Shown here: positions 26,751 to 35,883 of the stretch, piece by piece | Position numbering within the stretch: the first letter of the stretch is position 1 | How the letters are laid out: each line of letters opens with the position of its first letter | Assembly (NCBI GenBank): GCA_021324595.1 | Contig: JAJPIV010000048.1 | Coordinates: 1,876 to 65,875, forward strand | Reading direction: 5' to 3' | Length of the DNA stretch: 64,000 nucleotides | Source: Actinomycetota bacterium | Lineage (GTDB): Bacteria > Actinomycetota > Actinomycetes > Streptosporangiales > Streptosporangiaceae | Program-made: the position numbers and the translations under genes | Notes under the pieces: generated by a model | What the model was told of the DNA's origin: nothing | Databases searched by the model: none | What the model saw: only the letters and a program-made list of their open reading frames with translations

Positions 26751-27725
26751 ATGAACGAGCAGGAAGGCCGGATTCTCGCCGGCGAGAACGTCGGCCCCGT
26801 CGACTCCACGCGCGTGCCCAGGTACGCGGGGATCGCGACGTTCGCGCGGCTGCCCCGGATCGACGAGGTGCCCAGCGCCGACGTGGCGGTGCTCGGCGTC
26901 CCGTTCGACAGCGGGGTCACCTACCGGCCCGGCGCCCGGTTCGGCCCGGCGCACATCCGCGAGTCGTCGCGGCTGCTGCGCCCCTACAACCCGGCGCTCG
27001 GCGTCCTGCCGTTCGCCGCCCTCCAGGTGGCCGACGCCGGTGACCTGCCGGTCAACCCGTTCGACATCGCCGAGGCGATCGGCGCGATCGAGCGGGGCGC
27101 GCGGGAGCTGACCGAGCGCGTCCCGCACCTGCTCGCGCTCGGCGGGGACCACACGATCGCGCTGCCCCTGCTGCGGGCGTTCGCCGCGGCGCACGGCCCG
27201 CTCGCCGTGGTCCACTTCGACGCGCACCTGGACACCTGGGACACCTACTTCGGCGCCGCGTACACGCACGGCACGCCATTCCGCCGGGCGTTCGAGGAAG
27301 GGCTGCTCGACCCGTCCGGGTGCGTGCACGTCGGCATCCGGGGTCCCCTGTTCGGCTCCGGCGACCTGGCGCGGGACTCGGCAGTCGGATTCCAGGTGCT
27401 ATCCGCTCCGGAGGCCGGCGACCTCGGCCCGGCCGGCATCGCCGAGCGGATCGCCGCGCGCGTCGGCGACCGGCCGGCCTACGTGTCCCTCGACATCGAC
27501 GTGCTCGACCCCGCGTTCGCGCCGGGCACCGGCACGCCCGAGGCGGGCGGACTGACCAGCCGGGAGCTGCTGGCGGTGCTCCGCACGTTCGCCGGGCTCC
27601 GGCTGGTGGGCGCGGACATAGTCGAGGTGGCACCCGCCTACGACCACGCGCAGATCACCGGCATCGCCGCCGCGCACGCCGGCTTCGAGCTGATCTCCGC
27701 GATCGCCGCCCGGGCGAGCGGGTGA
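26751..27725 (+). CDS. Ureohydrolase (agmatinase / guanidino-acid hydrolase family)
   Basis: All Mn-binding motifs are present: [29 protein letters not shown]. Confidence 0.9.
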
Positions 27726-27809
27726 CGCCGGCGCCGCCGGCGGCCATCGGCCGCGCGCTCCGCCCGCGCCGAGGCGCCTTGGCGCCGACGACCTCGGCGG
27801 CTGGTGCCG

Positions 27810-27881
27810 CGTCTGCAGCGCCTCGGTCTCCGGTTCGGGCAGCACGAGCTTGAGCGCGGCCGAGGTGTCAAGATAGATCAT
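27810..27881 (-). pseudogene. VapC (PIN-domain) toxin remnant, N-terminal ~24 codons only
   Basis: MIYLDTSAALKLVLPEPETEAL is a typical PIN N-terminus. The similarity is lost after about 24 aa. A full PIN domain would run about 235 nt into the ureohydrolase gene. Confidence 0.65.
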
Positions 27882-28170
27882 CAGTACCGCTCGTCGCCGC
27901 GCATCTGGGCAAGAGTGCTGCTGAGCATCAGGCCCTTGTCGCGCTCGCCACGTGGCGGAGCGCGCGGGATCGGTCCCGGATGGGCCGCCGGGATCGCCCT
28001 GCCCTGAGCGATGAGGCGATCGAGCAGCGCGACGCCTGTCGCGGGGCGGCTGGCATGATCCGCGCGACCGGCCGCCCGTGCTCGCTGATGTCCGGCGACT
28101 CGCCGGCCTTGACGCGCTCCAGCACCTTCGCGGTCTGCCGGTTCAGCTCGCTCACGGCCACCGTGGCCAT
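27881..28170 (-). pseudogene. Phd/YefM-type antitoxin with an apparent -1 nt frameshift
   Basis: The N-terminus (MATVAVSELNRQTAKVLERVKAGESPDISEHGRPVARIMPAAP) and C-terminus (TGVALLDRLIAQGRAIPAA...LAQMRGDERY*) are in different frames. They join at the C4 run (plus strand GGGG 28043-28046). The stop overlaps the vapC ATG (TGATG). Confidence 0.65.
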
Positions 28171-28431
28171 GACGTTCATCGTCCCACCAAGTAGTACCAG
28201 GGGCCTGTCGCTCGTCGGCGGCTCCCCGTGATTGGTTCCGGCAGGCGCTGAGCCGCCGCTCACGGCCCGCCCGCGCAGGGCTCGCGCCCGCCCGGGCATC
28301 ACCGCAGCCCGCGGGCGGGCCGTCGCACGCCGGCCACGCCCTGCGGACCCCAGACTCCCGCTCCCGTGACGGCGCGGCGGCGCAGCGCCGCGCCCGGCCC
28401 GCGCGGGGCGCTAGGGACCGCTGCCCCGTTC

Positions 28432-28804: not shown

Positions 28805-29268
28805 CCAGCACCGCGACCACGACCGGCACCCAGGTCTACCAGATCTACATCAACGCCCCGCAGCAGAAGGTGTGGGAGGCGATCACCACCCCCGAGATCG
28901 TCTCGAAGTACTTCCACGGCGCCCGGGTCGAGGGCAGCTACCAGGCCGGGACCAGGATCCGCACGGTCTCCCCGGACGGCGCCCAGGAGTGGGGGAACAA
29001 CACCGTCCTGGAGGCCGATCCGCCGCGCCGGCTCGTGCACACCTGGCGCAGCCTGTACGACCCGGAACTGGCGGCCGAGCCCGAGAGCCGGGTCACCTGG
29101 GAGATCGAGGCCCTCCCCGGCGGGTTCTCCCGGCTCACCCTCATCCACGACCGGCTCGACGCCTCGCCCAGGACCGCCGCGAGCGTCACCGGCTGGTCCT
29201 ACTTCCTCAGCAGCCTCAAGTCGGTCCTGGAGACCGGCAGCCCGCTGCCGCCGGTTCCGGACATGTGA
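28801..29268 (+). CDS. SRPBCC/AHSA1 (START-like) family protein
   Basis: Typical ArsR partner. ATGA overlap. VWEAITTPEIVSKYF...TWEIEALPGGFSRLTLIHD pattern. Confidence 0.8.
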   Translation: MTSTATTTGTQVYQIYINAPQQKVWEAITTPEIVSKYFHGARVEGSYQAGTRIRTVSPDGAQEWGNNTVLEADPPRRLVHTWRSLYDPELAAEPESRVTWEIEALPGGFSRLTLIHDRLDASPRTAASVTGWSYFLSSLKSVLETGSPLPPVPDM

Positions 29269-29296
29269 AGGCCGGGCGCTCGCGCCGCCCGGCCTT
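29268..29296. terminator. Bidirectional hairpin AAGGCCGGGCG-N7-CGCCCGGCCTT between convergent genes
   Basis: 11-bp perfect stem with a 7-nt loop, starting at the SRPBCC stop codon. Confidence 0.6.
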
Positions 29297-29329
29297 CAGA
29301 TTCTGCCGGCCGGGCGGCGCGGCACTGGC

Positions 29330-29599
29330 TCAGTCGCCGGGCTCTCCCTCCCGCGCGAACTTGTCCCTGAAGTACTCCACGATCCGGCTCGCCTGCTCGT
29401 GGCTCACCTCGACCAGTTCCTCATCCAAGCTGCCGTGCTCCCACTCGACGATGAGCGAGGTCCGCGCCCAGCTCATGTCCCGGCGTAGGCCCTCGTCCTC
29501 CGGCCCGTCGTCATGGTGCAGGCGGCGCAGCAGCCCCAGCGGGCGTTCGGCCGTGGCCCCGCCGTCGGTGATCGCGTAGTACGTGATCGCGCCACTCAT
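29330..29599 (-). CDS. Small acidic protein (89 aa), candidate antitoxin/immunity partner
   Basis: The ATG overlaps the stop of the upstream gene (ATGA at 29596-29599). Rich in D/E (…HHDDGPEDEGL…SLDEELVEVSHEQ…). I recognise no family. Confidence 0.6.
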   Translation of the reverse strand: MSGAITYYAITDGGATAERPLGLLRRLHHDDGPEDEGLRRDMSWARTSLIVEWEHGSLDEELVEVSHEQASRIVEYFRDKFAREGEPGD

Positions 29600-30843
29600 C
29601 GCTGGTCACCTTCCTGCTCCCGGAATCCCGTGACCCCCGGGGGCCTCGGGATGGCGGCGCTCACCAAGCGCTGGTAGTCCTCCAGGGCGTGCCGCTCGGC
29701 GCGGGTGACGGCGAGCGACCGCAGGCGCCGGTAGGCGCGGTGGGTGAGGCTCTCCTTGGCGTAGAAGCTCTCCGGGGTGTGGAACTGCAGCTCGAACCTG
29801 CCCCCCGCCGGGGTCTGCCACCGCGTGTTGATGCCCTTGTACTCCGGGTCGTCCCGCCAGCCGTCCTTCCGGTGGATCATGGCGTACCCCGCCGCTTCCA
29901 GGCGCCGCCGCACGTCCTCACACCCGCGAACATACCGTTCCCGGTCGAAGCAGAAGGTGTACCGGACCGCGTCGCCGACGTGGCCAATGGCCTCCTCCGG
30001 AGTCATGCCAACCCGGGCCGTCAGCTTGTCCGCGATCTTCTCCTTGAGGCGCTGCTCGCCCTTGAGCCGGTGCTCGAAGCCCATCAGGCGGCCCCCGTGC
30101 GGGTTCTCGCGCTCGATCAGCCGCAGCACCCTGCTGACCTGTGATTCCGGCTCGCGAAGCCGGGCGATCATCCGGTCGGCGAGCGCGTTCTGCCCGGGGT
30201 CGAGGTACCGGCCCCCCTCGCCGCGCCAGGAGCCCGGCGGGTCGCCCGGGCGCCGCCCGGCGGCGTCGCGCTCACCGGGCGCCTCCGGCCACCGGGCGAG
30301 GTGCTGCGCCCAGACGCGCTCGAGCCGCCCGACCTGGTTCCAGAACGCCCGGTCCGGCGCGTCCGCCCCGGAACGCTCCTGCGGCGCGCCAGGCCGGTCC
30401 GCGCCGCCATCCCGCTGGCCCTGCTCCCGCTGGCCCTGGTCCCGCTGGCCGTCGCCGGGCCGATGGTCACCCCGCCGGCCGTCCTCGGACCGCCGGCCGG
30501 CCTCGCCGGCCGGCCACCCCGGCGCGACCATCCTGCCCGGCCGGTCCGCGACGGTGCCCGGCGCCTCTCGCTGACGGGCCCGCGAGGCACGCCGGGCGCC
30601 CGGCCCGGCGCGGTCCCCGGCGAGGACCCCGCCAGGCCCGCGCCCGTACTCCGGTGAGCTCGGGTGGAAGGCAGGCAGCCGCCGCAGGCGCGCCTGCAGC
30701 GCGTCGCGGAGCACGCTCCGGTCAGCAAAGGTGACAGCGTGGTCGGCCGCCCGGCCCGCGCGTGCGTCTAACCGCTCGGTGTTGTCCTCCCACCGCTCGG
30801 TGTTGTCCTCGCCCAACGGCCGCCTCGCCCCTTCCCGCGGCAC
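29596..30843 (-). CDS. RelA/SpoT-like (small-alarmone-synthetase / toxSAS-like) nucleotidyltransferase-domain protein with a long low-complexity N-terminus
   Basis: The C-terminal ~165 aa carry, in order, HRLKGEQRLKEK, GDAVRYT, EYKGIN, FELQFHT and THRAY. These mirror RxKSxxSxxEK, DxxGxR, GYRSxH, ExQIRT and HxxYK of RSH synthetase domains. There is no hydrolase, TGS or ACT domain. GTG start at 30843; the true start is uncertain. Confidence 0.6.
   Translation of the reverse strand: MPREGARRPLGEDNTERWEDNTERLDARAGRAADHAVTFADRSVLRDALQARLRRLPAFHPSSPEYGRGPGGVLAGDRAGPGARRASRARQREAPGTVADRPGRMVAPGWPAGEAGRRSEDGRRGDHRPGDGQRDQGQREQGQRDGGADRPGAPQERSGADAPDRAFWNQVGRLERVWAQHLARWPEAPGERDAAGRRPGDPPGSWRGEGGRYLDPGQNALADRMIARLREPESQVSRVLRLIERENPHGGRLMGFEHRLKGEQRLKEKIADKLTARVGMTPEEAIGHVGDAVRYTFCFDRERYVRGCEDVRRRLEAAGYAMIHRKDGWRDDPEYKGINTRWQTPAGGRFELQFHTPESFYAKESLTHRAYRRLRSLAVTRAERHALEDYQRLVSAAIPRPPGVTGFREQEGDQR
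30410..30454. repeat. 15-bp tandem repeat x3 (TCCCGCTGGCCCTGC and variants) in the toxin-like gene
   Basis: Read directly. Encodes GQRDQGQREQGQRDG. Confidence 0.8.
30771..30812. repeat. 21-bp tandem repeat x2 (1 mismatch) at the 5' end of the toxin-like gene
   Basis: Read directly. Encodes EDNTERW-EDNTERL. Confidence 0.85.
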
Positions 30844-30946
30844 CCGGTTGCTGCCCCGCCCGGCTGCTGCGGTACCCGGCTCCCGGTGGCAACCGGCACC
30901 GGTCCATTAGAGCATGACATTCGTCCGATGCGGGCCGGTCCCAGGA

Positions 30947-31306
30947 TCACCGGTAGCTGCCGCCCTTGACCGGCAGGCCGTTCGCTGCCCACGCCGACAT
31001 GCCGCCGCGCAGGTTGTAGGCCTCGCGGCCGGCGCGGGCGAGGAACCGGGCGGCTCGCGCCGAGCGCATGCCGGACTGGCAGACGGCGATCACCGGGCGG
31101 TCGTGCGGGATCTCCGCGAGCCGCGCGGGGAGCGATCCGAGAGGGATGTGGCGGGCCGCCGGGGCATGCCCCGTGCTCCACTCGTGCCGCTCCCGGACGT
31201 CGATCAGGACCGCGCGCCGCTGTGCGAGCAGCGCCTGGACCTCGCCCGCCGCGATCGTGCCGTATGGCCTGGTGAACATCTTCCTCAGCGTCGTGCCGAT
31301 GCCCAT
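30947..31306 (-). CDS. Single-domain rhodanese sulfurtransferase
   Basis: Active-site loop VCQSGMRSARAA. ATG 31306 is preceded by GGAGAGAG. The 346-aa track ORF was trimmed. Confidence 0.85.
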   Translation of the reverse strand: MGIGTTLRKMFTRPYGTIAAGEVQALLAQRRAVLIDVRERHEWSTGHAPAARHIPLGSLPARLAEIPHDRPVIAVCQSGMRSARAARFLARAGREAYNLRGGMSAWAANGLPVKGGSYR

Positions 31307-31489
31307 GCTCTCGCTCTCTCCGCCGATGCTCTCGCCCGGGACGGTGCCCCGGGCTGCCTGCGCCCCGCCCTGGCGTGCCCGCCCGCCTGCCCGCGGCCGC
31401 GGGACTGGGCGGCACGGGACCAAGGTCCCTGCAGGCGAGGGACAGGCGTCCCTGGCCAATATACCCCTGTGGGTATCTAGCCTGACCGC

Positions 31490-31876
31490 ATGGAGGTCAC
31501 GTTCGTCTCTGGGGAGTCCTACGAGGTCGCGATCCGGGGCCATCGGATCGTGGTCGACCAGCCGGCCGAGGACGGGGGCGAGGACACCGCCCCGACGCCG
31601 ACCGAGCTGTTCGTCGCGTCGCTGGCCAGTTGCGTCGCCTACTTCGCCGGCCGTTACCTGACCAGGCACGGGTACGACCGGACCGGCCTGGCCGTCTCCG
31701 CCGACGTCGAGCTCGCGCCGGACCGGCCTTCCCGCGTGGGCCGCATCGCGATTACCGTCAAGGTGCCGACCGAGGTGCCGGAGTCTCGGTGGCCCGCGCT
31801 CGCCGCGGTGGCCGAGCACTGCACGGTTCACAACAGCATGCGCCAGCCGCCGCGCGTCAGCATCGAGCTGACCTGA
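31490..31876 (+). CDS. OsmC/Ohr-family protein
   Basis: 128 aa with two conserved Cys contexts (LASCVAYF, AEHCTVHN). Confidence 0.8.
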   Translation: MEVTFVSGESYEVAIRGHRIVVDQPAEDGGEDTAPTPTELFVASLASCVAYFAGRYLTRHGYDRTGLAVSADVELAPDRPSRVGRIAITVKVPTEVPESRWPALAAVAEHCTVHNSMRQPPRVSIELT

Positions 31877-31920
31877 CGCCTCGGCCCGCGGGAGCTGGCG
31901 CAGGGGAGGTCGTGGTGAGC

Positions 31921-33702
31921 ATGGCGGACGGCACGGTCGGCACGGCAGCGGGCGCGGCGGCCCATCCATCGCCCGGCCCGGTGGCACCCGCCGATGCGCT
32001 GATCGAGCGGATCAGGAACGGGATCATCGGAGAGGGCGAGGTGCTGGACGGCCCGTTCGGGCCCCGGCGGATCACCTACGCGGACTACACCGCCTCCGGC
32101 AGATCGCTCGGCTTCATCGAGGACGCGATCCGCGCGCACGTGCTGCCGACCTACGCGAACACGCATACCGAGAGCTCGGGCACCGGCCTGGCGACGAGCC
32201 GCCTCCGCGAGGAGGCCAGGCGGATCATTCGTGACGCGGTCGGCGGCACGCAGGATGACCTGGTGATCTTCTGCGGATCCGGCTCGACGGCCGCGGTGAA
32301 CAAGCTCGTCGGGATCCTGGAGATCCGCGTGCCGGCCGGCCTGGACGACCGCCACCGGCTCACCCGCGCGATCCCCGCCGCCGAGCGCCCGGTGGTGTTC
32401 GTCGGCCCCTACGAGCACCACTCGAACGAGCTGCCCTGGCGGGAGTCGATCGCCGACGTGGTCGAGATCGGCGCGGATGCGGACGGCCACGTGGACCTGG
32501 CGGACCTGGAGGCCCGGCTCGCCGCCCACGCGGACCGGCCCCTGAAGATCGGCAGCTTCTCGGCCGCCTCGAACGTGACCGGCATCCTGACCGACACCGA
32601 GGCGATCGCCGCCCTGCTGCACGCCCACGGCGCGCTGTCCTTCTGGGACTACGCGGCCGCGGCCCCCTACGTCCGGATCCGGGTGCGCGAGTCCCGGCCG
32701 GGAGCGGGCGATCACAAGGACGCGGTGTTCATCTCCCCGCACAAGTTCATCGGAGGCCCGCAGACCCCTGGCGTCCTCGTCGTCCGCCGCGACCTGGTCC
32801 GCAACCGCGTGCCCACGGCACCCGGCGGCGGGACGGTCGCGTTCGTCGGCCCCGCCAGCCACCGGTACCTGGACGACCCGGTGGCCCGGGAGGAGGGCGG
32901 CACGCCCGCGATCATCGAGTCGATCCGCGCCGGCCTGGTCTTCGCGCTCAAGGAGGCGGTCGGCACCGACGTGATCAAGGAGCGCGAGGAGAGGCTGTGG
33001 AAGCGGGCCCTGGCCCGCTGGTCGGCCCACCCGGCGATCGAGGTGCTCGGCAACACCCACGCCCCCCGGCTGTCGATCGTCTCGCTGCGGATCAGGCACG
33101 GCGGGCGGTACCTGCACCACAACTTCGTGGTCGCGCTGCTCAACGACCTGTTCGGGATCCAGTCCCGCGGCGGCTGCTCGTGCGCCGGCCCCTACGGGCA
33201 CCGGCTGCTCGACATCAGCGCGGCGCGCTCGGTCGCCTTCGACCAGGAGATCGGGCGCGGCTGCGAGGGCATCAAGCCCGGCTGGGTCCGGATCAACTTC
33301 AACTACTTCATCTCCGACGCGGTCGCCGACTACCTGATCGACGCGGTCGTCGAGCTCGCCGAGCGCGGCCACCGACTGCTCCCCCAGTACCGCTTCGACC
33401 CGGCGACCGGCCTGTGGCGGCACCGCAGCGCCCGCCCGGCAGCACCCGCCCCGGCCGGCGGCCTCGCCGGCCTGGCTCTCGCCCCCGCCGCGGCCGCGGC
33501 CGCAGGGACCGCGAGCGCACCCGCCGCGGCGCCGGCCGCCCGCGCCCGGGCCGTCGGCGAGGAGGCGCTCCCGGGGTACCTGGCGCAAGCCCGCGACCTG
33601 CTCGCCGGCCTGCCCGACCCGTCCGAGGACGGCCCGACCGGCCTGGACGAGGACTTCGAGGCGCTCCGCTGGTTCGTGCTCCCGCCCGCCTGCCTCGCGT
33701 AG
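31921..33702 (+). CDS. Aminotransferase class V-fold PLP enzyme (cysteine-desulfurase-like)
   Basis: YADYTASGRSL, ANTHTESSGTG and SPHKFIGGP (PLP Lys) motifs. ATG 31921 lies 11 nt after GGGGAGG. Confidence 0.75.
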   Translation: MADGTVGTAAGAAAHPSPGPVAPADALIERIRNGIIGEGEVLDGPFGPRRITYADYTASGRSLGFIEDAIRAHVLPTYANTHTESSGTGLATSRLREEARRIIRDAVGGTQDDLVIFCGSGSTAAVNKLVGILEIRVPAGLDDRHRLTRAIPAAERPVVFVGPYEHHSNELPWRESIADVVEIGADADGHVDLADLEARLAAHADRPLKIGSFSAASNVTGILTDTEAIAALLHAHGALSFWDYAAAAPYVRIRVRESRPGAGDHKDAVFISPHKFIGGPQTPGVLVVRRDLVRNRVPTAPGGGTVAFVGPASHRYLDDPVAREEGGTPAIIESIRAGLVFALKEAVGTDVIKEREERLWKRALARWSAHPAIEVLGNTHAPRLSIVSLRIRHGGRYLHHNFVVALLNDLFGIQSRGGCSCAGPYGHRLLDISAARSVAFDQEIGRGCEGIKPGWVRINFNYFISDAVADYLIDAVVELAERGHRLLPQYRFDPATGLWRHRSARPAAPAPAGGLAGLALAPAAAAAAGTASAPAAAPAARARAVGEEALPGYLAQARDLLAGLPDPSEDGPTGLDEDFEALRWFVLPPACLA

Positions 33703-33763
33703 CGCGGGCGCGGCCGGGGACAACCGGGCGCGGCGCGGGGATGCCCGGGCGGGCGCGCCGCGC

Positions 33764-34279
33764 TCAGATGAACAGCAGCTGCGCGCCCTCGGTCTTCTCG
33801 ATGAAGTCCGCGGCGCTGATGATCCCCTCGACCCGCTCGTACAAGTCGCCCAGGTCCAGGTGCATCATGTCGGCCGACATCTTGCACGCCCACAGGTGCC
33901 CGCCGGAGTCGGTGATCTGCTCCAGGAACTCCGGCACGTCGGGAACGCCGACCTCCCTGATCTGCCTGCGCATCTGGTGGGTCGCCACGGCGGTCATCCC
34001 GGGCAGGCCGCCGAGCCCCTGCGGCATGTGCGTGGCCGTGTTGCCGAGCATGGTGAACTTCAGGTCCCCCATCCGCGACTTCGTGATGATGTCGAAGCCC
34101 CAGAAGGTGAAGAACAGATCGACCTGGACGCCCTCGCCCAGCGCGGCGTTGGCCAGGATCAGGCCCGGGTAGGCCATGTCCAGGTTCCCCTTGGAGCAGA
34201 TGATGGCGAGCTTGCGGCCCTCCGATGCGGCGTCGCCGAAGTCGGGGATGATGGCCGGCTCTTCCTGCGTGGTGCTCAT
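33764..34279 (-). CDS. DsrE/DsrF-like sulfur-relay family protein
   Basis: KLAIICSKGNLDMAYPGLILANAA...GHLWACKMS pattern. RBS GAGGAGGAGG. Confidence 0.75.
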   Translation of the reverse strand: MSTTQEEPAIIPDFGDAASEGRKLAIICSKGNLDMAYPGLILANAALGEGVQVDLFFTFWGFDIITKSRMGDLKFTMLGNTATHMPQGLGGLPGMTAVATHQMRRQIREVGVPDVPEFLEQITDSGGHLWACKMSADMMHLDLGDLYERVEGIISAADFIEKTEGAQLLFI

Positions 34280-34324
34280 CGCGTGCCTCCTCCTCGGTGC
34301 CCGTCTCACCCGCCCGGGCCGGCG

Positions 34325-34639
34325 TCAGACGCAGCCGACCGGCTTGGGCAGCCCGGCGATGTAGGCCATCTTCTTCGCCGGCTTGCCGGGGAACAGGGTG
34401 AACAACTCCCTCACCGGGATGCCGGCCACGGTCGAGACCCGGCGCAGCGTGGGGGTCTCGCCCTGCTCCTTGTAGTCCTCGCGCAGGAACCTGAGCACGC
34501 GCAGGTGTGCGTCGGTCAGCTCGATCCCGATGTTCGCGGCCAGCTGCCGGGCCAGGTCCTCGCTCCACTCGTCGTAGTCGGTCAGGAACCCCTCGGAGTC
34601 GACGTGGACCTGCGTGGCCCCGATCGTGGTGACAGGCAT
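34325..34639 (-). CDS. TusE/DsrC-family sulfur carrier
   Basis: C-terminus AGLPKPVGCV (invariant terminal Cys arm). No second Cys 10-11 residues upstream, so TusE-type. The ATG overlaps the SQR stop (TGATG). Confidence 0.85.
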   Translation of the reverse strand: MPVTTIGATQVHVDSEGFLTDYDEWSEDLARQLAANIGIELTDAHLRVLRFLREDYKEQGETPTLRRVSTVAGIPVRELFTLFPGKPAKKMAYIAGLPKPVGCV

Positions 34640-35883
34640 CAGTCCTCCCTCGGCTGGTGCTTTCCCGCCATCGACATCCGCGCCGGCAGCAGGGGGATCG
34701 GCCGGCCCGGCAGCATCACGTGCCAGTACATCCACCGGAAGGCGAGCTTCCCCCAGTGGTTGCGGGCGCTCTCCCGCAGCAGGCTGAACGGCCCGAGCGC
34801 CGGGACCGGGTAGCTGCCGGGGAGCGGCTCGGTGTCGTAGTTGAAGTCGAGGAGCAGTCCCTTGCCGTCCCCGGACTCCAGGAAGCAGTTGGCGTGCCCG
34901 TCGTAGGCGCCGGTCATCGGCTGGCCGGCCGCGTGCTGCAGGAAGTTCCCGGCGAAGACCTCGGCCTGGAAGTGCGCCGAGGACCCCGCCTTCGACGCGG
35001 GGAGATCGGCGGCGTCCCCGATGGCGAAGATGTTCGCGTGCGCGCGGGACAGCAGGGTGTGCTTGTCCGCGGGGACGTAGTTCAGCTCGTCGCCGAGCCC
35101 GGACCGCGCGATGTAGTCGGCGCCCATGTTCAGCGGGACGGTCACGAGGAGGTCGAACGGGACCTCGCGCTCGTCATAGGAGACCAGGACCTTGCGCTCG
35201 GCGTCGACCCGCTCGGTGACGAAGTCGGGCTCGACCGTGATCTTGCGCTCGTCCAGCATCGAGCCGAGGAGGGCGGAGGCGGCCGGCTTGGTGAACGCGC
35301 CATCCAGCGGCGTGACGTAGCTCAGCTCCACCCGGTCCCGCATCCCCAGCCGCCGGAAGCGGGCCTCGGCCAGGAACGCGAACTCCAGCGGCGCGACCGG
35401 GCACTTGATCGGCATGTCGACCAGGTGGACGACGAGGCGGCCGCCGTCGAACCGGGCCAGCGCCTCCGCGAGCGCGCGGGCCCCGTCCAGCGTGTAGAAG
35501 TCGAAGACGGACGCGCGCCACTGCCCGCCGAGCATGCCGGGGGTCTGGTCCGGCCGGGGCGCGGTGCCCGTGGCGATCACGAGGTAGTCGTAGCCGAGCC
35601 GGCGGCCGCCGGCGAGCAGCACCTCGCCGGCGTCGGCGTCGATCCGGTCGATCTCGCCGGGCACGAACTCGACGCCATCGGGGAGGAACCTGCGGCGCGG
35701 CTTGACGATCTGCGCGACCTGGTACTCCCCGAACGGGACGAACAGCAGGCCCGGCTGGTAGACATGCAGGTCGTCGCGGTCCACCACGGTGATCCGCCAA
35801 TCCGAGCGGCTCAGCCGCCGGCGGAGCTTGTTCACCACCATCGTCCCGGCCGTGCCGCCGCCGAGCACCAGCAGATGCCGCAT
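34639..35883 (-). CDS. FAD-dependent sulfide:quinone oxidoreductase-like pyridine-nucleotide-disulfide oxidoreductase
   Basis: N-terminal VLGGGTAGTMV (FAD fold). Length 414 aa. Coupled to tusE/dsrE-like genes. Confidence 0.75.
   Translation of the reverse strand: MRHLLVLGGGTAGTMVVNKLRRRLSRSDWRITVVDRDDLHVYQPGLLFVPFGEYQVAQIVKPRRRFLPDGVEFVPGEIDRIDADAGEVLLAGGRRLGYDYLVIATGTAPRPDQTPGMLGGQWRASVFDFYTLDGARALAEALARFDGGRLVVHLVDMPIKCPVAPLEFAFLAEARFRRLGMRDRVELSYVTPLDGAFTKPAASALLGSMLDERKITVEPDFVTERVDAERKVLVSYDEREVPFDLLVTVPLNMGADYIARSGLGDELNYVPADKHTLLSRAHANIFAIGDAADLPASKAGSSAHFQAEVFAGNFLQHAAGQPMTGAYDGHANCFLESGDGKGLLLDFNYDTEPLPGSYPVPALGPFSLLRESARNHWGKLAFRWMYWHVMLPGRPIPLLPARMSMAGKHQPRED

Follow-up and report, generated by a model that had tools for sequence, protein, structure and literature searches.

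Among the alarmone synthetases described so far, the closest solved and characterized relative of the protein studied here is SaEAS (PDB entry 8VX3), an exported alarmone synthetase (EAS) found in Streptomyces albidoflavus (Ahmad et al., mBio, November 2025; PMC12691689). SaEAS, VpEAS and AaEAS have been shown experimentally to be toxic alarmone synthetases when cytoplasmic; SaEAS makes (p)ppGpp as well as (p)ppApp, whereas AaEAS and VpEAS make only (p)ppGpp (PMC12691689). In the same study the Sec-exported EASs have no immunity genes, whereas members without a signal peptide have them (PMC12691689). The toxic small alarmone synthetases (toxSAS: FaRel, FaRel2, PhRel, PhRel2 and CapRel) are encoded, for their part, by conserved and often overlapping bicistrons (Jimmy et al., PNAS 2020; PMC7229694). 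The field is young, Tas1 dating from 2019, toxSAS from 2020 and the exported synthetases from 2025. We analysed in this context a two-gene locus on the minus strand of a 64,000-nucleotide stretch of DNA from a Streptosporangiaceae bacterium (contig JAJPIV010000048.1; this whole stretch is called the window below). It is made of an open reading frame (ORF) encoding a predicted toxin of 415 amino acids, hereafter the toxin, and of a smaller overlapping ORF encoding its putative immunity protein of 89 amino acids.

An earlier note, made from the letters of this DNA, had proposed a new toxin–immunity pair. The toxin clade was in fact published in November 2025 (PMC12691689), so this kind of toxin is already known, and the central surprise of the locus, namely that an actinobacterium has a toxSAS-like toxin together with an immunity gene, is pre-empted by that paper. 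File S4 of Ahmad et al. includes a protein of the window toxin's own subfamily, A0A358SQY4, whose annotation is truncated at the N-terminus (PMC12691689); the paper does not discuss this subfamily, nor its partner or leader (PMC12691689). What does stand of the claim to novelty is the immunity family, which, like the N-terminal leader of the toxin, appears to be undescribed. Our reading of the pair, which we hold with evenly balanced confidence, is that of a self-contained toxin–immunity cassette built on polymorphic-toxin logic, in which a leader-bearing toxin with a synthetase (SYNTH) domain would be delivered and an immunity protein would bind it.

The toxin ORF starts with a GTG at 30843; a TTG at 30816 is an alternative start, giving the 406-residue protein of the public gene call. 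A contig from a JGI soil metagenome is identical to the window, and the same 406-residue toxin is called on it. The TGA of the toxin overlaps the ATG of the small ORF in an ATGA, as the earlier note had seen. The features of the cassette are as follows.

29596–30843, minus strand: toxin gene, stop codon included (ORF list and sequence; identical 406-residue metagenome protein; 290 homologues)
30634–30729, minus strand: N-terminal leader, residues 39–70 (motif conservation, AlphaFold2 confidence, leader profile, sharing with Zeta_toxin proteins)
30364–30633, minus strand: disordered Arg/Gly/Ala/Pro/Asp-rich linker, residues 71–160 (model confidence, composition, repeats)
30771–30810, minus strand: 21-bp tandem duplication at the extreme N-terminus (TRF)
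30247–30363, minus strand: pre-domain element, residues 161–199 (invariant residues, AlphaFold2)
29629–30246, minus strand: predicted SYNTH (pyrophosphokinase) toxin domain, residues 200–405 (phmmer, profile, Foldseek, NCBIfam, catalytic residues)
29596–29599, minus strand: stop/start overlap ATGA, translational coupling (read from the sequence)
29330–29599, minus strand: putative cognate immunity/antitoxin gene, 89 amino acids from an ATG start, isoelectric point (pI) 4.7 (390 homologues, pairing, AlphaFold2 model)

The synthetase domain and its coupled partner

The RelA/SpoT-type synthetase domain of the toxin covers residues ~200–405 (about 206 amino acids), and thus extends beyond the last ~165 residues in which the earlier note had rightly recognized it. 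A phmmer search against PDB sequences retrieves 8VX3 (SaEAS, also 'SaSAS') with E=1.7e-26 over residues 204–405, and Tas1 (6OX6) marginally (E=0.06); a profile of 88 homologues brings the match to 8VX3 to E=4.3e-42. SaEAS and the toxin share 34.5% identity over 200 residues and have in common the GxW[KR]GEGG start of the mature domain, DPPGSWRG in the toxin corresponding to the first residues of mature SaEAS. In NCBIfam, the domain matches the C-terminus of XopAD/skwp (positions 1944–2127; E=1.7e-29). An AlphaFold2 model of the toxin, built on the 88-sequence family alignment, has a predicted local distance difference test score (pLDDT) above 90 over residues 163–405. Foldseek places this model nearest to 8VX3 (E=1e-14, template modelling (TM) score 0.86 on the target, 32% identity), followed by Tas1 (E=6e-6), RelQ and RelP (about 1e-4), and SpoT, Rel and CapRel (E=1e-3 or better). 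A significant match to the synthetase fold of RelA/SpoT homologues (RSHs), a central antiparallel β-sheet with flanking helices, on which the earlier note had staked its proposal in advance, is thus obtained by sequence (8VX3) as well as by Foldseek.

The five RSH-like motifs that had been read in this ORF occur in order, namely HRLKGEQRLKEK (residues 258–269), GDAVRYT (290–296), EYKGIN (334–339), FELQFHT (350–356) and THRAY (367–371), and all of them fall on invariant or near-invariant columns of the family alignment. Residues D121, R124, N169, E182 and Q184 of SaEAS correspond to D291, R294, N339, E351 and Q353 of the toxin, which are invariant or near-invariant in the 88 homologues, five of the six SaEAS active-site residues being kept. 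Pfam detects no hydrolase (HD), TGS or ACT domain in the toxin; a long RSH is rejected on this basis, in agreement with the earlier note. Judged from sequence and modelled fold, the toxin is an RSH synthetase of the Apk1/Tas1–SaEAS clade, outside the five named toxSAS subfamilies; its description as toxSAS-like was right about the RSH synthetase domain. We predict that the domain, which is basic (pI 9.6), transfers pyrophosphate to purine nucleotides; whether G-type alarmones, A-type alarmones or both are made is not readable from sequence.

The 89-residue protein is indeed rich in Asp and Glu (20 D/E versus 10 K/R; pI 4.7) and has 390 homologues, at 60–76% identity. In its AlphaFold2 model (pLDDT 90.8), five short strands are accompanied by a short helix and, at the C-terminus, by a long one. 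The protein matches nothing in Pfam, NCBIfam or PADLOC, and no PDB sequence in a profile search; in a Foldseek search of the PDB with the model the best match has E=0.35, and no 6OX6 chain is among the matches listed. A phage genome collection contained no sequence homologues of the 89-residue protein. In BFVD, two unnamed viral proteins resemble the model: A0A516KX65 (92 amino acids; TM score 0.69, E=3e-4) and A0A1B0XTJ1 (236 amino acids; TM score 0.63, E=6e-3).

At E<=1e-3 the toxin has 290 homologues, with 40–60% identity over the C-terminal ~250 residues. Scanning one genome per species gave 78 loci, mostly from Streptosporangiaceae and Trebonia-like metagenome-assembled genomes. In about 66 of the 78, the gene that follows the toxin directly encodes a homologue of the 89-residue protein, the unpaired loci being contig ends and the most distant relatives; the small gene is also downstream in all inspected leader-bearing synthetase loci. 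The start–stop distance is 0, -1, -4 or -8 in 38 of the 44 cleanly extracted pairs, and the identity matrices of toxin and partner correlate (Mantel r=0.82, a value reached by 0 of 999 permutations). When all ORFs within ±10 kb were clustered all-against-all, no conserved neighbours beyond the pair emerged in the 78 loci; what recurs near it are shadow ORFs antisense to the toxin and members of generic families (MFS, ABC, transketolase, aminotransferase). Several genomes contain two or more copies of the pair, some in tandem or convergent. The conservation of the small ORF beside homologues, on which the earlier proposal also depended, is therefore established: the pair is a conserved, autonomous, translationally coupled two-gene module.

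Two pairs can lie within a few kb of each other, in tandem (L012, L026, L036, L051) or convergently (L017, L024, L035, L038, L062). In the convergent loci the second toxin is shorter and more divergent (37–40% identity over residues ~240–403), and the second pair has its own immunity homologue, at about 40% identity.

The partner is also found with synthetase toxins whose N-terminus differs from that of the window toxin. An immunity homologue follows an 853-residue Mycolicibacterium toxin with a WXG100-like domain (L067), and another follows a 459-residue Spongiactinospora toxin (L068) with a different N-terminal domain, which has no assignment. Synthetase loci carry this family downstream (85–100 amino acids, YYAIV...VEWE), whereas loci that combine the leader with a Zeta domain, described below, carry a different small protein. 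An orphan homologue (66% identity) lies between ispH (LYTB) and an MFS gene (L164:3001-3264 and L165:3001-3264), and no homologue of the toxin lies within 3 kb of it; four contigs encode this same protein. The small gene tracks the toxin domain, not the rest of the protein. Because the 89-residue protein has no DNA-binding fold and a charge opposite to that of the toxin, direct binding is the most economical mechanism, and sequence and models together suggest that it is the putative cognate neutralizer of the synthetase domain.

Two loci show other arrangements. In Saccharopolyspora sp. HNM0986 (L057:11157-11762), an immunity-like segment forms the C-terminal half of a 201-residue protein (tblastn E=5e-6), so the immunity module can be joined to another domain; the toxin upstream is a 912-residue synthetase whose N-terminal region, without Pfam assignment, resembles those of L055 and L065. 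On the chromosome of Nocardia sp. NBC_01499 (L076:9821-12343), the synthetase domain is at the N-terminus of an 840-residue protein whose C-terminal two-thirds look by eye like a phage tape-measure-type protein, Pfam finding nothing there; an upstream ORF of 226 residues ends in a segment that resembles the immunity protein by eye only.

A leader shared between toxins

The earlier note saw the first ~250 residues of the toxin as disordered. Disorder is found over residues ~71–160, but the N-terminus is not merely disordered: it is composed of a conserved modular leader and a spacer, and residues 39–70 and 163–199 are conserved and confidently modelled. The leader (residues 39–70) consists of a helix (39–54) followed by RLRRLPAFHPSSPEY (the 'L..RL..LPxxHPSS' motif). 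The motif s-R-x-a-L-l-x-R-L-x-x-L-P-p-G-H-P-S-[SA] is present in 72 of the 88 family members, and a short R-A-D-R-L segment that precedes it is common to homologues. In the AlphaFold2 model the pLDDT is about 85 over the whole leader, its non-helical part included, with disorder on both sides. The linker that follows (residues 71–160) has a pLDDT of 35–50 and is encoded by DNA of 82% GC; neither its length, which ranges from ~20 to ~650 amino acids, nor its sequence is conserved among homologues. The longest was observed in a family member read from stop to stop as an 895-residue ORF (L033:8048-10732), where ~650 residues of Pro/Arg/Asp/Glu-rich repeats (PAEPR, ARPD...) separate the leader from the synthetase domain; linker length is thus essentially unconstrained. 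As for the repeats of the window toxin itself, TRF reports a 21-bp unit present 1.9 times with 100% matches at 30771–30810, which encodes EDNTERW/EDNTERL, and a 15-bp unit is present 2.7 times within the linker at 30410–30450, encoding GQR[DE]Q.

The element of residues 161–199 is made of a pre-domain helix, FWNQVGRLERVWAQHLARWPE, and a short linker, with the family pattern FW..V..FE.LW..H..RWP. W178, H181, W185 and P186 are invariant in the family alignment, and the helix itself (163–184) is modelled with a pLDDT of 81–98. Mature SaEAS lacks the whole element, the alignment with it beginning at residue 204. We considered whether the N-terminus could be a spurious high-GC extension of the ORF, and rejected this since homologues conserve both the leader and the pre-domain helix. 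Residues 1–200 contain no Pfam or NCBIfam domain, and in particular no known trafficking domain for the leader; a literature text search for the string GHPSSP returned no papers.

In distant members the leader motif extends to LPPGHPSSPY.DDG.RKPP.P.L.D.ELP.PG. Eighty metagenome loci fetched with the motif gave numerous synthetases, three Zeta_toxin (PF06414) proteins that are complete, and some fifteen short ORFs made of the leader only. A word-indexed search of 5.8 billion proteins with an alignment of 24 leader sequences retrieved 9 short proteins, which were used as seeds. A leader profile was built from leader-only sequences and used in an exhaustive search of 1.84 billion representative proteins, which yielded 251 proteins at E<=1e-3, 76 of them at E<=1e-10. 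We sorted by C-terminus 154 leader sequences (150 listed of the 251, and the seeds): the synthetase domain is carried by 54, another 73 are short or truncated, and 27 remain as other proteins. Pfam was run on 23 of these other proteins and assigns five to Zeta_toxin/AAA_33; P0361 has a distinct C-terminal domain without assignment. The combination of leader and Zeta_toxin (PF06414) is found in L094:177-1475, L101:697-1884 and L156:1355-2446, and in P0360, P0328, P0341, P0356 and P0311. In the three loci the gene is followed each time by an overlapping ORF of its own (92–104 amino acids, MTNEV.DLIAALRDGSL.L.EVAQRFRERSWPR...), which is unrelated to the 89-residue protein of the window. Toxin domains of different kinds share the leader as a module. 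Two traits of polymorphic toxins are thus observed, a shared N-terminal module with alternative C-terminal domains and a toxin-specific immunity gene downstream.

Protein P0356 has in addition an N-terminal HATPase_c_2 domain. The leader-only ORFs (about 60–105 amino acids; L084-L093, L098, L125 and L126, e.g. L085:2044-2358) end 48–66 residues past the HPSSP motif, and they lie in a common order of genes: an inositol-monophosphatase-family gene, a CBS-domain gene, the leader ORF and a gene for a 480–530-residue protein without Pfam match. They have the look of a small conserved gene and not of toxin remnants.

Genomic context and deployment

The cassette is flanked by arginase on one side and by rhodanese/OsmC on the other. 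The earlier note had placed it in an islet with a Phd–VapC remnant and an ArsR pair; the neighbours are as described, but their GC content is like that of the flanks, and a horizontally acquired island was rejected by composition, GC being flat across the cassette and its flanks. The neighbouring pair is made of an ArsR-type HTH_20 gene and an AHSA1/SRPBCC gene. The decayed toxin–antitoxin (TA) module occupies 27399–28302 of the window, on the minus strand, with the N-terminal half of a Phd/YefM protein (26.7 bits, under the Pfam cut-off) and, in the ORF after it, a VapC PIN-like start (MIYLDTSAALKLV...), for which Pfam gives no match; this PIN-like ORF extends, in antisense orientation, into the arginase-family gene (26751–27725) at its 3′ end. 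Upstream of the cassette, the precomputed Pfam annotation of the identical JGI contig reveals a sulfur-handling cluster (30947–35883) comprising rhodanese, OsmC, a class-V aminotransferase (cysteine-desulfurase-like), DsrE-like and DsrC-like genes and a Pyr_redox_2 flavoprotein. The extended -10-like TGCTCTAAT is in place at 30906–30914, but the promoter that had been proposed there is supported neither way by a consensus scan of 29100–31100, which called no sigma-70-like promoter and no terminator; the transcriptional autonomy of the pair has as its sole basis the differing upstream gene in homologous loci.

From the homologies and models above we infer toxicity, neutralization by binding, a nucleotide product and export. 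Free in the cytoplasm, the domain would move pyrophosphate from ATP to the 3′-OH of purine nucleotides to give (p)ppGpp and/or (p)ppApp, and the alarmone flood together with the drain on ATP would stop growth or kill the cell. In the producer, the ATGA coupling would yield the 89-residue protein in step with the toxin, and this acidic protein would block the basic SYNTH domain by direct binding. The leader would most likely serve in delivery or export, through an as yet unrecognized route, or control deployment in some other way.

Regarding deployment, we favour a delivered or exported polymorphic toxin, with a confidence that is just short of even. This preference is founded on the modularity of leader, linker, toxin and immunity protein, on the fact that the closest relatives are delivered or exported, on the reuse of the immunity family by a WXG100-type toxin, on the existence of an orphan immunity gene, and on the pattern in the literature that members without a signal peptide have immunity genes whereas Sec-exported ones do not. 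Several observations weigh against it, or against the assignments on which it is built. There is no signal peptide or hydrophobic segment in the toxin (the maximum Kyte–Doolittle average over 19 residues is 0.1), and the absence of a hydrophobic stretch means that the leader is neither a Sec nor a Tat signal; in residues 1–200, Pfam and NCBIfam give none of the recognized secretion domains (LXG/WXG, XopAD, MuF, DUF4157, Rhs/PAAR). The ORF clustering in the 78 loci led us to reject a conserved secretion or defence operon, which bears on the export step, and neither the neighbours nor the domain scans of the leader link the pair to a secretion or delivery apparatus. The partner is on average more conserved than the toxin (mean identity 58% versus 46%), which is unusual for an arms-race immunity protein. 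As to the domain, PF04607 (Pfam RelA_SpoT), a profile that the earlier note had named for a check, does not match even at E<=1, and the 120 toxin homologues listed have no precomputed Pfam domains; this clade is too divergent for PF04607, so membership of the RSHs is founded on the homology to 8VX3 and on the fold. Finally, K154 of SaEAS aligns to H324 of the toxin, with K326 two residues on.

The absence of a signal peptide, of a secretion domain and of secretion genes would suit an intracellular toxSAS-type type II TA system, possibly serving in abortive infection or in plasmid or island stabilization, and this is the alternative that we take most seriously, albeit as a tentative one. The small protein would then be a labile or displaceable antitoxin, and the leader and linker a regulator or sensor instead of a delivery signal, acting for instance in autoinhibition or as a trigger-binding site; the leader's pLDDT of about 85 even where it is non-helical hints, in the model, at docking on the folded domain. 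The pair forms an autonomous, overlapping bicistron that occurs in numerous chromosomal contexts unrelated to one another and in several copies per genome, and toxSAS are conserved, often overlapping bicistrons (PMC7229694); in the window it adjoins the decayed Phd/VapC module, and the Zeta toxins that share the leader are classical TA toxins. Yet the closest relatives of the toxin are exported or delivered proteins (SaEAS, Tas1, MuF-linked phage proteins, XopAD), not FaRel, PhRel or CapRel, PADLOC finds nothing, and the small protein is acidic and has no DNA-binding fold. Moreover, a shared leader, linkers of free length and toxin-specific downstream genes are the signature of delivered polymorphic toxins, and the immunity family also serves a WXG100-type toxin and exists as an orphan gene. 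Two further readings bear on the target and on the role of the domain. It might pyrophosphorylate the 3′-CCA of tRNA like CapRel, FaRel2 and PhRel2 instead of free nucleotides, the pairing being unchanged; the fold shared with CapRel (7ZTB; E=3e-4) and the very basic toxin domain, which would suit RNA binding, go in this direction, but the structural alignment with CapRel is poor (root-mean-square deviation 13–14 Å), the ATP-site residues of SaEAS are kept, and the toxin is much nearer to SaEAS and Tas1, which make (p)ppGpp and/or (p)ppApp, so that we judge this improbable. Slightly less probable still is a small alarmone synthetase that is regulated and non-toxic and serves the cell's own signalling, the 89-residue protein being its regulatory subunit and not an antidote. 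Such a role would agree with the high conservation of the small protein, above that of the enzyme, and with the position of the pair among ordinary metabolic genes of native GC; but every characterized member of the clade is toxic in the cytoplasm (PMC12691689), the cassette is multi-copy, patchy and in variable contexts, the same domain with the small protein is the C-terminal cassette of a WXG100-type toxin, and the leader is common to Zeta toxins.

If the toxin is delivered, as we prefer to think, the leader may go further and be the recognition signal of a new delivery or export route for polymorphic toxins of Streptosporangiales and related Actinomycetota, and the 89-residue protein a new immunity fold; alarmone-synthetase and Zeta-kinase toxins that lack a signal peptide would then be exported by this route or passed on to neighbouring cells. 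We consider this stronger proposal doubtful; leader-only small proteins in a conserved context and linkers of free length would fit it. The leader shared with Zeta-kinase toxins makes the question of deployment testable. A delivery signal, if that is what the leader is, would mean a new toxin-trafficking route in Actinomycetota, and a regulatory leader would mean a new control element for toxSAS-like TA systems.

Comparison with known systems

In SaEAS a Sec signal peptide immediately precedes the domain, and an immunity gene is lacking; the window toxin has no signal peptide but a leader/linker/helix extension of ~200 residues and a coupled immunity gene. It has neither the Sec signal nor the recognized secretion domain by which EASs are defined, and it is homology that places it in their clade; its stand-alone architecture without a signal peptide cannot be placed in any secretion category that has been listed for the clade, and the HPSS leader is not among the five export-associated domains listed by Ahmad et al. 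(PMC12691689). Also close are AaEAS and the Streptomyces clusters A and B of Ahmad et al., which are synthetases linked to type VII secretion systems (T7SS) or to conjugation, with putative immunity genes. Like the window toxin, they have no signal peptide and a small ORF downstream, and their conserved residues before the SYNTH core appear to fold with the core, which may be compared with helix 163–184; unlike them, the window toxin lacks an LXG/WXG domain, and neither T7SS nor Trw genes lie near it. The toxSAS systems resemble the window pair by the overlapping bicistron and by an RSH synthetase toxin with a small neutralizing protein, a role that is predicted here. The window toxin is, however, far nearer to SaEAS and Tas1 than to CapRel, with no match in PADLOC, and its antitoxin is unrelated to anything found, having no Pfam or PDB match.

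Other relatives are delivered by dedicated machineries. The XopAD/skwp type III effectors have a C-terminal domain homologous to that of the window toxin, and the MuF-fused phage synthetases (Apk2-like; phage minor-head proteins) are 28–30% identical to it (E down to 8e-22); the SKWP repeats and type III secretion system of the former, and the MuF domain and capsid delivery of the latter, have no equivalent in the window toxin. The Apk1/Tas1–Tis1 pair, a (p)ppApp-synthetase effector of the Pseudomonas aeruginosa type VI secretion system with its immunity protein (T6SS; 6OX6), has the SYNTH fold and the toxin-then-immunity order in common with the window pair, and neutralization by a small partner is the mode expected for the window pair too. 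Tas1 differs by its PAAR/Rhs delivery domain and its T6SS cluster, and no homology of the 89-residue protein to Tis1 came out of the PDB sequence search or of the Foldseek matches listed; with hundreds of homologues, mainly in uncultured acid-soil Streptosporangiaceae, this protein is a candidate that may inhibit a SYNTH domain in a new manner. The polymorphic toxins with a Zeta domain (PF06414), lastly, share only the leader (LPPGHPSSP...) with the window toxin, their P-loop fold being of the UNAG-kinase type and their partner protein a different one. The parts of the locus worth following are thus the undescribed immunity fold and the leader that the window toxin has in common with these Zeta toxins.

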